A stretch of 64,000 bases of DNA from contig CBDDFZ010000001.1 in NCBI GenBank assembly GCA_965227515.1, positions 3,776,001 through 3,840,000 of the forward strand. The letters run 5' to 3'. Under the pieces are notes generated by a model that saw nothing but the letters and a program-made list of their open reading frames with translations, made no database searches and had not been told where the DNA came from. The stretch is from Alphaproteobacteria bacterium (GTDB taxonomy: Bacteria; Pseudomonadota; Alphaproteobacteria; CALKHQ01). The first letter of the stretch is position 1, and every line of letters starts with the position of its first letter. The position numbers and the translations under genes are program-made. This document shows positions 57,031 to 60,315 of the stretch, in pieces.

Positions 57031-57720
57031 TTGCGTGAACAATCATTGGCCGGGCTGGCAATTCTGGCCGGGCTGCCCGAAGAAGATCTGAACGATCTGG
57101 AGGCGAAGTGTACCTGGCGACGGTACGCGGGCAATCAGATCATTCTCGACCAGCATGCGACCACGAACGAAGTCTGCTTCGTCGTGACCGGCGCGGTGCG
57201 GATTGTCAGCTACGCGCCGAGCGGGCGCGAGATATCGTTCAGCGACGTGCCGGCCGGCGGCTATTTCGGCGAACTGGCCGCCATCGACGGGGACCCGCGC
57301 TCGGCATCGGTGATTGCCCTGGAGCCGACCAATATCGCGGCAATGGCCGCCGACCCATTCATCGACCTGTTGGTGGAGTATCCGTCGGTGGCGCTGGCCG
57401 TCATGCGCGACCTGACCCGCATCATCCGCTCATCGACCGCACGGATCATGGACCTCAGCGTCCTCGGTGCGAACAACCGGGTGCAGGCCGAAATCCTGCG
57501 CCTGGCGCGCGAGGCATCGAAGGACGGGCAGACGGCGCGGATCTGGCCGATTCCGGTGCACAGCGACATCGCGGCACGGGTCAGCACGACGCGCGAAACC
57601 GTGGCGCGCGTGCTGAGCGACCTGTCGCGCCACGAATTGGTCGCGCGCGAGGGCCACGTTCTGGTGGTGCGCGACATCAACCGGCTGTCCGCGATGGTGG
57701 AGGCCGTCCACGAAGCCTGA
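57031..57720 (+). CDS. CRP/FNR family regulator (CRP-like)
   Basis: cNMP pocket YFGELA...PRSA; recognition helix TRETVAR. Confidence 0.92.
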   Translation: MREQSLAGLAILAGLPEEDLNDLEAKCTWRRYAGNQIILDQHATTNEVCFVVTGAVRIVSYAPSGREISFSDVPAGGYFGELAAIDGDPRSASVIALEPTNIAAMAADPFIDLLVEYPSVALAVMRDLTRIIRSSTARIMDLSVLGANNRVQAEILRLAREASKDGQTARIWPIPVHSDIAARVSTTRETVARVLSDLSRHELVAREGHVLVVRDINRLSAMVEAVHEA

Positions 57721-57837: not shown

Positions 57838-58434
57838 ATGAGTCTGCAGGACCTGTTGAACCGGCGCACCGCCGCCGGTGTTGCGGTGGCGGTGAGCATG
57901 ATCGCGCTTACCGCGTGCAGCCAACGTGGCGCTGTCACCGCCGACGCCAGCGCCGACGCGACCGTCACCGCTGACGCCACTGCCGATGTCACCGCCGACG
58001 CGACGGCCGATGTCAGCGCGCCCAGCGGCGACCTGGTCGACACCGCCGCCGCGGCGGGCAGCTTCTCGACCCTGATCGCGGCGGTGCAAGCCGCCGGTCT
58101 GGAAAGCGTGTTGCGCGGCCCCGGCCCCTACACCGTGTTCGCCCCCACCGACGAGGCGTTTGCCAGTTCCCTGCCGGAAGGCACGGTCGAGTTGTTGATG
58201 CAGCCATCCAACAACGCGCGCCTGGTGCAGATCCTGCAGTACCACATCATCTCCGGCGAACTGATGTCGGCGGACGTGGCCGGGTCCTCGGTCGCCCGCG
58301 CGACACTGGAGGGCCGCGAAGTCGAGATCGACGGGACCAGCGGTTTCGAAGTCGACGGTGTGACCATCACGTCGGCCGATGTGGAGGCCTCCAACGGCGT
58401 CATCCACGTGATCAACGAGGTCCTGCTGCCATAG
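57838..58434 (+). CDS. Fasciclin (FAS1) domain lipoprotein
   Basis: LTAC lipobox, YTVFAPTDEAF, ILQYH, ASNGVIHVI. Confidence 0.93.
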   Translation: MSLQDLLNRRTAAGVAVAVSMIALTACSQRGAVTADASADATVTADATADVTADATADVSAPSGDLVDTAAAAGSFSTLIAAVQAAGLESVLRGPGPYTVFAPTDEAFASSLPEGTVELLMQPSNNARLVQILQYHIISGELMSADVAGSSVARATLEGREVEIDGTSGFEVDGVTITSADVEASNGVIHVINEVLLP

Positions 58435-58479
58435 GGCACGCCAGACAAAACAGCGGGATTGGCGCGGATCGTTTCGACG

Positions 58480-58495
58480 TGTGACTGAGGTCACA
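58480..58495 (+). promoter_or_regulatory. CRP-type box for sRNA copy 1
   Basis: TGTGA-CTGAGG-TCACA, perfect consensus, centred 41.5 bp before the repeat start. Confidence 0.75.
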
Positions 58496-58528
58496 TGCAA
58501 ATTGACTTGGTGCGCTTAAGTATGGAGC

Positions 58529-58591
58529 ACCTTCAGATCCCCTCCTGATGAACGCTGCCTCAAACGCCCGGCCCCGTGCCGGGCGTTTTTT
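58529..58591 (+). ncRNA. Putative anti-SD sRNA, copy 1
   Basis: ACCTTCAGATCCCCTCCTGATG head, GC hairpin and T tract. Confidence 0.7.
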
Positions 58592-58655
58592 CTTGTCTGC
58601 TTTTCTTGTCAGCGCAGCGCTGGGAAACCGCCGTCATTTTGCCGGCCGACCGGCC

Positions 58656-58697
58656 AGTGACCGCCGTCACATGGCGTTCCGGACGCTGCCCCCATAT
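58656..58697 (+). promoter_or_regulatory. CRP-type box and -10 for copy 2
   Basis: aGTGA-CCGCCG-TCACA at -41.5; CCCCATAT -10-like element. Confidence 0.7.
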
Positions 58698-58704
58698 CCC
58701 GAAG

Positions 58705-58769
58705 ACCTTCAGATCCCCTCCTGATGAACACTGCCTCAAACGCCCGGCCTCGCGCCGGGCGCTTTTTTT
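58705..58769 (+). ncRNA. Putative anti-SD sRNA, copy 2
   Basis: Same 22-nt head and terminator. Confidence 0.7.
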
Positions 58770-58818
58770 GGCGCGACGGCAAGGCCGCGACCGGCGCCAT
58801 TCGCCCGCCGGACCGGCC

Positions 58819-58860
58819 AGTGACCGCCGTCACATGGAATGCGGGCCCCTGCCCCCATAT
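58819..58860 (+). promoter_or_regulatory. CRP-type box and -10 for copy 3
   Basis: aGTGA-CCGCCG-TCACA at -41.5; CCCCATAT. Confidence 0.7.
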
Positions 58861-58867
58861 CCCGAAG

Positions 58868-58933
58868 ACCTTCAGATCCCCTCCTGATGCGTACAGCCTC
58901 AAACGCCCGGCCTTGTGCCGGGCGTCTTTTTTT
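58868..58933 (+). ncRNA. Putative anti-SD sRNA, copy 3
   Basis: Same 22-nt head and terminator. Confidence 0.7.
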
Positions 58934-58981
58934 GCTCCGGTGGCGCGCGAACCAAAAAATTTCAACCGGAAGGTCGACTTG

Positions 58982-59626
58982 ATGAACAGAACAGGGCTGG
59001 CCATCGCCGCGAGCGTGCTGCTGTCGCCGGCAGCAGCCTGGGCTCAGGATCCCGTTCACTTCGCGCTGCCCGACGTCGGAACCGAAATCGAGTGGTCGGG
59101 GGGACTGGTCGCAGAGGTGACGGAGGTCGAGCCCGAGGATCGCGCCTACAAGATGGCGCTCTCCTATCCCAACAACTACCGCCAAGTGCAGAACGTGGTC
59201 GAAGGCCTGCAGACGAATGCGTTGTGGCTCTATAATGACAACGGCGACCTGATTTCCGAGAACAACACCATCTTCGACCGGGCGGCGCTGACCGGCTTCT
59301 GGCCGCTGACCCTGGATGCGCAGATTACATTCACCGGCACGGAGTTCACGGATGGCGGGCCCATGTCAGCCTGGGAGGCCACGCTGACGGTGGAAGCGTT
59401 CGAGACCGTGTTGACGCCGCTTGGCCTGGTCGATGCCGTGCGCGTGCGCCGCATCGACGAGCTGACCGCCCAGGCCAACGACGACCTGCCGATCGACAGT
59501 GTCGAGGCGGTGATTTGGTACGCACCGTCTGTCGGCATGACGGTCAGGGCCGAGGTCACCCACTACGATGGCGACCAGGTTGTGCAATCGATCAGCTTCG
59601 TGCCCGAGAGCATCACCCTGCCCTGA
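58982..59626 (+). CDS. Hypothetical secreted protein
   Basis: Signal peptide (AWA-Q), acidic beta-rich body, ETVLTPLG..A and WYAPSVG motifs. Confidence 0.8.
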   Translation: MNRTGLAIAASVLLSPAAAWAQDPVHFALPDVGTEIEWSGGLVAEVTEVEPEDRAYKMALSYPNNYRQVQNVVEGLQTNALWLYNDNGDLISENNTIFDRAALTGFWPLTLDAQITFTGTEFTDGGPMSAWEATLTVEAFETVLTPLGLVDAVRVRRIDELTAQANDDLPIDSVEAVIWYAPSVGMTVRAEVTHYDGDQVVQSISFVPESITLP

Positions 59627-59650
59627 CGCCGCGACGGTAAATTTTAGGTG

Positions 59651-59692
59651 GGTGACAGCCGTCACAGCGGTTTCAGGCGAGCTGCCCTATAT
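59651..59692 (+). promoter_or_regulatory. CRP-type box and -10 for copy 4
   Basis: gGTGA-CAGCCG-TCACA at -42.5; CCCTATAT. Confidence 0.7.
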
Positions 59693-59700
59693 TCAAGCTC

Positions 59701-59762
59701 ACCTTCAGATCCCCTCCTGATGCACAGTCCCTCAACGCCCGGCCCCGCGCCGGGCGTTTTTT
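59701..59762 (+). ncRNA. Putative anti-SD sRNA, copy 4
   Basis: Same 22-nt head and terminator. Confidence 0.7.
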
Positions 59763-59772
59763 CTTGGATGTC

Positions 59773-60210
59773 TCAAAGGCCAGACAACCCCGGATCGACC
59801 ATGCGGTGCAGGCGGCTGGCGGCCGCCAAGCCATAGCGCAGCATCACCGCGCGGCGCCGCGACGGCGCCACCTTCTGCACGGCGGCCGGGCGCACCACAT
59901 CGGCGCCGTGACCGTCTGCCACCAGAATGCCGGTGTCGTCCGGGAGCAGCGCGGTATCGAACGCCGCCGGCACGGCAAAGAAGAACAGATCGCAATAGGG
60001 CAGGTACTCGGGCCACTTCCGGTCCGCCCGCAGGTCGGCCACGCTGGTCTTGATCTCCACGATGGCGATCGTCCCGCGGTCGTCGATGCCGACCACATCG
60101 GCTCGGCGTCCGTTGCGCAGCACGAACTCGGGCAAGGGCTGGTACCCGCCGGCCGCAAGCCAGCGGCTCACCCCCCGGCAGACTTCCAGTGCCGGCGCCC
60201 GGCCGTCCAC
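59773..60210 (-). CDS. mmcB: MmcB family DNA repair protein
   Basis: RGV.R, NGRRADV, IVEIKTS.ADLRADRKWPEY..YCD.FFFAVP, GILVAD. Start placed at GTG 60210; the track start is 60258. Confidence 0.88.
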   Translation of the reverse strand: MDGRAPALEVCRGVSRWLAAGGYQPLPEFVLRNGRRADVVGIDDRGTIAIVEIKTSVADLRADRKWPEYLPYCDLFFFAVPAAFDTALLPDDTGILVADGHGADVVRPAAVQKVAPSRRRAVMLRYGLAAASRLHRMVDPGLSGL

Positions 60211-60241
60211 GACCGGCTCGCCGGCATCGGCACCGATAAAT

Positions 60242-60256
60242 GTTTTGGTTATGTTC
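60242..60256 (-). promoter_or_regulatory. Alphaproteobacterial LexA (SOS) box
   Basis: GAAC-ATAACCA-AAAC (consensus GAAC-N7-GAAC) just after TTGACC-N17-CCTAAT. Confidence 0.65.
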
Positions 60257-60315
60257 ATGGCCGCATTAGGCCATGCCCGACCCGGCAGGTCAACGCACCG
60301 CTGGATGAAACGAGA

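Follow-up and report, generated by a model that had tools for sequence, protein, structure and literature searches.

A 64,000-nucleotide stretch of the genome of an alphaproteobacterium (the window; positions below are counted within it unless a contig is named) carries, between 58480 and 59763, an array of four short related units. We read this array, with moderate confidence, as four sibling trans-acting small RNA (sRNA) genes with an anti-Shine-Dalgarno (anti-SD) head that are probably activated by a CRP-type regulator. The reading draws on the architecture shared by the units, on a predicted CRP-type site at a fixed distance from each of them, and on the complementarity of their common head to the SD regions of mRNAs.

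Four units share an invariant head and an intrinsic terminator

All units have the same order of parts: a palindrome of the form (T)GTGAC-N4-GTCACA, a -10-like hexamer, an invariant head, a 7-base linker with CCUCAA, and a GC-rich terminator with its U tract. The head, a 22-mer (ACCTTCAGATCCCCTCCTGATG), occurs in exact copies at 58529, 58705, 58868 and 59701, on the + strand only, and a search of the window with up to 3 mismatches found no further copy (mean of 0.00 in 100 shuffles). These four copies are also the total for the whole genome (G000; 5.52 Mb, 2 contigs, 99.67% complete) on both strands at the same tolerance. A covariance model made from the four units, R1, has exactly four matches in this genome, the units themselves, at 89 to 96.1 bits. 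The 7 linker bases vary (AACGCTG, AACACTG, CGTACAG and CACAGTC in units 1 to 4) and are followed by CCTCAA(A), with one A fewer in unit 4 than in units 1 to 3, by a stem (CGCCCGGCC/GGCCGGGCG) around a variable 5-base loop, and by 6 to 7 T; stems and T tracts do not vary from unit to unit.

A terminator scan called all four stems as intrinsic terminators on the + strand, with 6 matches in the region compared to 1.2 expected. Read on the minus strand, the stem has TTTGAGG after it, which makes a poor U tract, indicating that the + strand is the transcribed one. Each unit of ~64 nucleotides (nt) folds better than its own shuffled versions (z of -3.5 to -4.2), and the minimum-energy or centroid fold of all four contains a weak head hairpin (UCAG/CUGA, 4 bp). 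Its loop, AUCCCCUC, has an unpaired probability of 0.99, and bases 23 to 35 of the unit have values of 0.74 to 0.90.

The layout given in a preliminary description of this DNA is borne out by these results: it had listed four units with an invariant head at the positions above, which are exact copies and not a product of chance, followed by 7 variable nt, CCTCAA(A), a stem-loop and a T tract, with a UCAG/CUGA hairpin in the head and a separate upstream box and -10-like element for each unit. It had also seen no credible open reading frame (ORF) over the units, and none that crosses them is credible. The mechanically called ORFs on the + strand start at the head AUG without an SD sequence and run through the terminators, and their frames differ among the copies, with a 1-base indel in unit 4; those on the minus strand have no consistent frame. 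It is hence barely conceivable that small proteins are made from the AUG at head positions 20 to 22, whether the RNAs are seen as dual-function RNAs or as plain small ORFs. This AUG is conserved in four of four heads and units 1 to 3 would begin M-N/R-A/T-A-S-N-A-R-P, yet the bases preceding it are anti-SD rather than SD, in unit 4 the deletion of 1 base changes the reading frame after 5 codons, and, as every such ORF passes through an intrinsic terminator, its transcript would end before reaching a stop codon.

Each unit is preceded by a predicted CRP-type site

Sequences with up to 2 mismatches to TGTGACNNNNGTCACA occur in the 64-kb window only at the four palindromes upstream of the units (Table 1). 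The centre of the palindrome lies 29.5 bases before the start of the -10-like hexamer in all four cases, and a promoter scan of 58400-59900 detected no sigma-70-type -35/-10 promoter. Identity among the units sets in sharply at the A of the head, 7 to 8 bases past the -10 hexamer, with one extra base between -10 and head in unit 4. In the class II arrangement of CRP-family activators, as described in the accessible part of PMC6166021, the site is centred near -41.5 and replaces the -35 element. The upstream box is accordingly placed as a predicted CRP-type site in class II activator position. This putative CRP-type identity, like the candidate regulator gene next to the array, goes beyond the preliminary description.

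Identity along the units is mosaic. On average, pairs of units agree at 31% of the 40 positions upstream of the site, at 83% of those in the 16-base site (with all GTGAC/GTCACA letters kept), at 36% of the spacer positions, at 58% of those in the -10 hexamer and at 100% of those in the head. Such a mosaic would be the expected trace of selection acting on binding site, promoter element and transcribed seed, and is unlike that of a recent blanket duplication. Units 2 and 3, with 85% identity over 146 bases, are clearly the most recent pair of the array. This pair would fit recent tandem duplication of non-functional or decaying DNA, for example the remnant of a small mobile or repeated element without any consequential RNA, and so would the confinement of the family to one lineage. 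We consider such an origin very improbable for the array as a whole, which has four copies only, in one orientation and at one locus, and no GC anomaly or visible terminal repeats in its region. The spacers of units 1 and 4 are random-like (31 to 36%) and yet site, head and stems are intact, which needs selection or very targeted conversion, and the palindrome itself is a genome-wide intergenic element. The restriction to four copies at one locus, each with its own promoter elements, also answers the alternative of repetitive extragenic palindrome (REP)-like sequences that the preliminary description had raised.

Table 1. Predicted sRNAs, upstream sites, -10-like hexamers and genes of the array region (positions within the window; -10-like hexamers assigned by position).
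Feature	Position	Strand	Remarks
Predicted sRNA 1	58529-58592	+	~64 nt; linker AACGCUG, CCUCAAA; terminator 58562-58588 + U tract; z -4.02; R1 95.7 bits
Predicted sRNA 2	58705-58769	+	~65 nt; terminator 58741-58761; z -3.51; R1 96.1 bits
Predicted sRNA 3	58868-58932	+	~65 nt; terminator 58903-58925; z -3.85; R1 92.5 bits
Predicted sRNA 4	59701-59763	+	~63 nt; terminator 59734-59758; z -4.18; R1 89 bits
Predicted CRP-type palindrome, unit 1	58480-58495	.	TGTGACtgagGTCACA; 0 mismatches to TGTGACNNNNGTCACA; centre 41.5 bases before 58529
Predicted CRP-type palindrome, unit 2	58656-58671	.	AGTGACcgccGTCACA; 1 mismatch to TGTGACNNNNGTCACA; centre 41.5 bases before 58705
Predicted CRP-type palindrome, unit 3	58819-58834	.	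AGTGACcgccGTCACA; 1 mismatch to TGTGACNNNNGTCACA; centre 41.5 bases before 58868
Predicted CRP-type palindrome, unit 4	59651-59666	.	GGTGACagccGTCACA; 1 mismatch to TGTGACNNNNGTCACA; centre 42.5 bases before 59701, 41.5 before 59700
-10-like hexamer, unit 1	58517-58522	+	TAAGTA
-10-like hexamer, unit 2	58693-58698	+	CATATC
-10-like hexamer, unit 3	58856-58861	+	CATATC
-10-like hexamer, unit 4	59688-59693	+	TATATT
CRP-family regulator gene	57031-57720	+	229 aa; Pfam cNMP_binding 64.4 bits, HTH_Crp_2 40.6 bits
Fasciclin-domain protein gene	57838-58434	+	Directly upstream of unit 1; Pfam Fasciclin 114.2 bits
ORF	58985-59626	+	213 aa; between units 3 and 4; signal-peptide-like N-terminus; DUF3108_like 21.9 bits, below the cut-off of 27
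MmcB-like gene	59773-60258	-	Next after unit 4, convergent

The palindrome is a genome-wide element and a CRP-family gene lies beside the array

GTGAC-N4-GTCAC occurs 30 times in the genome, compared to 2 to 8 times for each of the other spacers from 0 to 10 and 3 times for a reversed control. Twenty-five of the 30 are intergenic, though gene calls (crude ones, made from ORFs of at least 80 aa with high G+C at third codon positions) cover 80% of the genome. The same enrichment is found in three sister-genus genomes (G001 to G003), the only other genomes of the family and order in our collection, which holds 4 species genomes of the order: they have 21, 13 and 19 palindromes versus 3, 4 and 3 for the control. 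On these counts it is a genuine cis element throughout the genome. The genes next to its other copies in G000 encode two RTX-repeat proteins, Hcp, a Peptidase_C58-like protein, a pentapeptide-repeat protein, a fatty-acid desaturase, a MotA/ExbB-like protein, an nSTAND-TPR protein and several small secreted or membrane proteins without a family, a mixed set that is largely one of secreted or surface proteins.

The CRP-family gene at 57031-57720 lies 760 bases upstream of the array. Its product has the cyclic-nucleotide-binding motif FGELA...RSAS and the recognition helix RETVAR, and its best solved relatives are 7pza (a rhizobial "cAMP-binding protein-catabolite gene activator"), the GlxR-type structures 4cyd/4byy, mycobacterial CRP and Escherichia coli CAP. 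In CAP, whose helix reads RETVGR, R180 and R185 make contact with G2 and G4 of TGTGA, and E181 with the C that pairs with G4, according to the available text of PMC10187061. The genome encodes ~6 to 7 Crp/Fnr-family proteins, three of which have an R-E-x-x-x-R helix (RETVAR in the array-side regulator, REAVTR and RESINR in the others); others have an FNR-like E..SR helix. Adjacency favours 57031-57720 as the candidate activator and is no proof of it. Orthologues of this regulator in G001 to G003 are 68 to 70% identical. The genome also encodes 23 class III cyclase domains and Hfq (108.8 bits).

Several other copies of the palindrome have features of their own. On the minus side of C1:3082213, a palindrome is followed at equal spacing by CAATAT and, ~45 bases on, by a 13-bp GC-rich hairpin without a clean U tract; this element may represent a short CRP-driven transcript of another kind, or else a leader. 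A few kb away, a CRP paralogue (C1:3089074) comes immediately after a cyclase-domain gene (C1:3088017), a pair similar to the cyclase-CRP operon of Rhodospirillum centenum described in the part of PMC10187061 available to us. Pairs of palindromes 30 to 42 bases apart recur in three genomes (C1:966433 and C1:966463 in G000, C6:22487 and 22529 in G002, C196:727 and 758 in G003), which suggests a conserved two-site promoter. Two further copies in G000, C1:2076157 and C1:2078557, lie 2400 bases apart in identical 60-base contexts within one frame of ~3050 codons (C1:2073202-2082363) that encodes a very large protein with long internal repeats, and both are probably coding coincidences. Finally, the palindromes on the plus sides of C1:1566929 and C1:1559572 stand directly 5' of very small ORFs (~45 to 125 aa) whose N-termini resemble signal peptides and which match no Pfam family.

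The head is complementary to Shine-Dalgarno regions

The 16S rRNA encoded in the window ends in ...GGAUCACCUCCUUUCUAAGGA, and head bases 8 to 19 (GAUCCCCUCCUG) match its 3' tail (GAUCACCUCCUU) at 10 of 12 positions, beyond the CCUCC core. We counted complements of at least 8 contiguous bases in 4060 predicted start regions and 4060 intragenic windows of 35 bases each. The head complement is found in 62 start regions versus 17 intragenic windows, in agreement with the SD complementarity proposed in the preliminary description, while the sense strand of the head gives 11 start regions and the complement of the true 16S tail gives 56. The head bases most often paired are positions 12 to 17, CCCUCC, and GGAGGGG is present in 46 of the 4060 start regions.

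According to Pfam, the ten start regions with the longest contiguous complement belong to an ABC ATPase, two solute-binding proteins, an SDR, a GFO/IDH/MocA oxidoreductase, an aldo-keto reductase, a DegP-like protease, an HPPD, an OmpA-like protein and a hydrolase, with no clear theme. Candidate start regions containing CATCAGGAGGG, CAGGAGGGGA or GGAGGGGAU are located at C1:2230893 (minus), C1:939421 (plus), C1:373813 (plus) and C2:1136197 (plus). The phasin leader that had been offered as a weak candidate target does not hold up, because it rests on an 8-mer, TTCAGGAG, that occurs 2 times in the window with 1.08 expected, a number in keeping with chance. The start region of the regulator gene itself is a weak candidate for feedback (-16.6 kcal/mol, rank 604 of 4060), and full-length duplex folding for targets produced long spurious GC duplexes. 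As a separate observation, a near-identical start region, ...GTTGGGYGGCCGGGAGGGGG(T)GTG, recurs in at least 5 genes (C1:1316643, C1:1152671, C1:409669, C1:173636 and C2:281437) and looks like the start of a repeated, insertion sequence-like gene family, with a G-rich SD that ranks among the head's best pairing partners.

The likeness to the 16S tail raises a different possibility, in which the RNAs are real and CRP-controlled and serve as a sponge for a G-rich sRNA or an RNA-binding protein, or as a global mimic of the 16S 3' tail that competes for strong SDs. The match of GAUCCCCUCCUG beyond the CCUCC core, the high dosage suggested by four gene copies and the lack of any specific target that stands out would all fit such a role. 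We nevertheless find it unlikely, given that the extra GAUC identity could be chance, that GGAGGGG is confined to a small number of start regions, and that anti-SD seeds are common in ordinary target-specific sRNAs, as stated in the accessible part of PMC4615179. A decidedly improbable extension of the mimic would have a cyclic-nucleotide signal act through the four genes to produce a bulk RNA that competes with ribosomes for strong G-rich SDs across the transcriptome instead of silencing a few mRNAs. Translation would then shift to weak-SD messages during a lifestyle change that also induces the RTX proteins, Hcp and small secreted proteins with the same CRP-type site.

The family appears confined to one lineage

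No Rfam family is matched by the units at its gathering score, consistent with the earlier proposal of an undescribed family. The best matches below that score are to SorX (RF02784; 19.4 to 22.1 bits for the four units, gathering score 46.6), suhB/MmgR (RF00519; 15.1 to 20.9 bits for units 1 to 3 and no match listed for unit 4, gathering score 41) and ar14 (RF02344; 17.3 bits for unit 4 only, gathering score 58.8), in alignments that rest mainly on the terminator. AbcR, CyaR, FnrS and Spot 42 are absent among the 29 Rfam matches at E ≤10 and the 6 at gathering score.

The head motif was absent from all three sister-genus genomes, as was the combined pattern site-N(20-32)-ACCTT. Among 52 of their 53 palindromes (one at a contig end was omitted), none is followed by a short terminated unit, and there is one weak terminator. 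In a sample of 401 genomes of the class, which includes one unpublished genome (G242) that enters no other result, 91 were matched at up to 3 mismatches, G000 among them; the matches elsewhere have 2 to 3 mismatches, number at most 2 per genome and lie on either strand. An exact 17-mer searched in 185,579 species genomes gave 25 single matches in unrelated phyla, with R1 scores of 16.4 to 27.4 bits and without a terminator, and an exact 18-mer searched in metagenome contigs gave 4 (17.7 to 29.5 bits); both sets are chance matches, from exact-word scans of a kind that would miss diverged homologues. Plasmids returned terminator-only matches by blastn.

R1, the covariance model proposed earlier as a check for relatives, found no homologue among 151 genomes: the best foreign match has 34.9 bits compared to 89 to 96.1 for the units, and none keeps the head. 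Most foreign alignments rest on the terminator, and two also pair loosely with the CU-rich 5' part. These two loci, which belong to other orders, L148 (G009, C1:2066463-2066528, minus strand) and L150 (G037, C14:240892-240958, plus strand), resemble RNAs of ~65 nt with a CU-rich 5' part and similar terminators and look unrelated to the array; one of them contains CCUCCCUGUU, which the SorX consensus also has. Small terminated RNAs rich in C and U seem to be common throughout the class.

One public sequencing run, X2, holds contigs that are 97 to 98% identical to parts of the locus and cover site 1 to 58553 as well as 59168-59762. It shows no change in site 1, in the promoter and head that follow up to 58553, or anywhere in unit 4 and its site (59647-59762), and changes are found only in flanking DNA. 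On these searches the sRNA family appears to be confined to the lineage of the window. In the literature, the seed string retrieved only unrelated papers in a search that left aside the sRNA tables of supplements, a non-exhaustive search turned up no CRP-family-driven sRNA from alphaproteobacteria, and the terms "sRNA" and "small RNA" do not occur in the available text of a CRP review (PMC10187061).

A possible CRP-sRNA circuit

For the four siblings as CRP-activated anti-SD sRNAs, we propose the following mechanism, in which transcription and the point where it starts, the identity of the regulator, its action as an activator and not a repressor, the targets and the outcome are inferred. A cyclic-nucleotide-binding regulator of the CRP family, most economically the product of the adjacent gene 57031-57720, would bind TGTGAC-N4-GTCACA ~41.5 bases upstream of the start and activate, in class II fashion, a promoter that has a -10 element and no -35 element. 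Transcription would start at the A of ACCUUC and end at the intrinsic terminator, giving four trans-acting siblings of ~63 to 65 nt, each from its own transcription unit. The invariant 5' head would expose AUCCCCUC(CU) in the loop of a weak hairpin, with a second CCUC in the single-stranded linker, and these C-rich stretches would pair with purine-rich SD regions of target mRNAs, preferring those of the GGAGGGG(AU) type. The pairing would block ribosome binding, probably with the help of Hfq. Four copies would raise the output of one signal, and the 7 variable linker bases may give the siblings a slightly different reach.

Several points weigh against this mechanism. On the promoter side, we infer the start site, and hence the -41.5 figure, from where identity begins, and a site that overlaps the -35 region might also act in repression. 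The adjacent regulator is not singled out, since three Crp-family paralogues carry R-E-x-x-x-R, and no CRP-type site or sRNA-like unit was found beside its orthologues in G001 to G003. As for the RNA fold, the head hairpin has a predicted energy of -2.1 kcal/mol alone (pair probabilities of 0.61 to 0.99). All 12 modelled pairs are invariant in the four copies, meaning that there is no covariation for or against the fold, and gene conversion could partly explain the identity of the copies.

On the target side, the energies of duplexes between the head and start regions do not stand out from those of shuffled heads. For a subset of 800 genes, the real head gives 267, 148 and 72 regions that reach -14, -16 and -18 kcal/mol, compared to 181 to 427, 74 to 273 and 30 to 147 with eight mononucleotide shuffles. 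The earlier proposal of a multicopy, translation-repressing sRNA family is upheld in part, for its self-contained, gene-like units and not for specific targets. The neighbouring genes rank 604, 2765 and 3215 of 4060 as partners of the head. A reversed-string control reaches 93 of 4060 start regions, above the 62 of the true head complement, though it is not a useful control because the reversed string is itself SD-like. Finally, no homologue is known from outside the lineage of the window to give comparative support, and the comparison with X2 has low power, with ~2 changes expected in the 116 unchanged bases.

Relation to known sRNA systems

The units are, as far as their sequence goes, a putative new family of a known kind. 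They resemble the cuckoo RNAs, which are also alphaproteobacterial, multicopy and small, with C-rich anti-SD-like loop motifs. According to the accessible part of PMC4615179, the cuckoo family includes the four paralogues CcsR1-4 (RSs0680a-d) of Rhodobacter sphaeroides, of which RSs0680a is Hfq-bound, and SmelA075 and SmelC397 of Sinorhizobium, and its members have 2 to 4 adjacent hairpins of 24 to 50 nt, each with CCUCCUCCC in a loop of 9 to 27 nt. In contrast, the units have one 16-nt hairpin with the 8-nt loop AUCCCCUC, plus a terminator, and no CCUCCUCCC; the string CCTCCTCCC is absent from 58529-59763. The context differs as well: CcsR RNAs are transcribed together with an upstream small ORF from one stress-sigma promoter, whereas each unit has its own palindrome, -10 element and terminator and the gene upstream of the array encodes a fasciclin-domain protein. 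Membership in the cuckoo/CcsR family was therefore rejected, as the units differ in hairpin number, loop motif and context, that is, in every defining feature that can be compared with the available description.

SorX, suhB/MmgR and ar14 share other traits with the units, being alphaproteobacterial RNAs of ~70 to 120 nt with CU-rich single-stranded stretches and a GC-rich terminator. In regulation, the closest likeness would be to CyaR and FnrS, which are driven directly by CRP and FNR (PMC6166021, in the part available to us). In those cases, as is proposed for the units, a Crp/Fnr-family factor acts on the gene of a short Hfq-type sRNA, through which the regulon reaches the post-transcriptional level, Spot 42 being the repressed case. 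The predicted sites of the units would be centred near -41.5, as in class II promoters. These RNAs have no sequence similarity to the units and are encoded by single-copy genes, compared to four siblings here. The host also differs from the enterobacterial hosts of CyaR and FnrS, in that it is a cyclase-rich alphaproteobacterium whose regulator is closest to Clr/GlxR-type CRPs.

A parallel for the sibling arrangement is provided by Qrr1-4/5 of Vibrio, near-identical sRNAs that each lie behind the same activator site and share an invariant seed block, as the units do. The Qrr genes differ in their sigma-54/LuxO activator, in their seed and in being dispersed, whereas the units are clustered within 1.3 kb. 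By analogy, the array may function like CyaR and FnrS, combined with the sibling logic and the anti-SD seeds of cuckoo/CcsR.

If expressed, the array would be a clear example, defined by its sequence, of sibling sRNAs that extend a cyclic-nucleotide/CRP regulon, and its host is an alphaproteobacterium of a very small and little-studied order. Its site, -10 element, sharp onset of identity and terminator are easy to read, which would make it an easy system for the study of class II activation, sibling redundancy and seed evolution. It would also illustrate that such sRNA families can be genus-confined and invisible to Rfam and comparative sRNA finders. The array opens no new principle.

Neighbouring genes

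The ORF at 58985-59626 starts 53 bases past the terminator of unit 3 with no promoter-like site between them, and may be expressed by read-through from the predicted sRNA promoters. With this ORF as the query, no match was found in G001 to G003. Its position allows another explanation, in which units 1 to 3 are tandem promoter-plus-attenuator modules for this secreted-protein gene, the short RNAs are by-products of termination and unit 4 is a stray duplicate. All three units point at the ORF, which lacks a promoter-like site of its own. Even so, the explanation is quite unlikely: unit 4 is equally conserved (head 22/22, with site and -10 kept) and yet faces a convergent gene; because that gene, 59773-60258, is on the opposite strand, unit 4 is not a cis leader. 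Moreover, three complete promoters each with a strong terminator would be an odd design, the minimum-energy structures contain no alternative antiterminator fold, and the conservation of the head exceeds any need of a leader.

The fasciclin-domain protein encoded upstream of unit 1 has, past its signal peptide, a repetitive stretch rich in Ala, Asp, Thr and Val that derives from 12-base DNA repeats (57936-58016). Just past the array lies an HlyD/ABC exporter pair. Elsewhere in the window, 14343-20099 on the minus strand is a complete rRNA operon that contains, in order of transcription, 16S, two tRNAs, 23S, 5S and one more tRNA.

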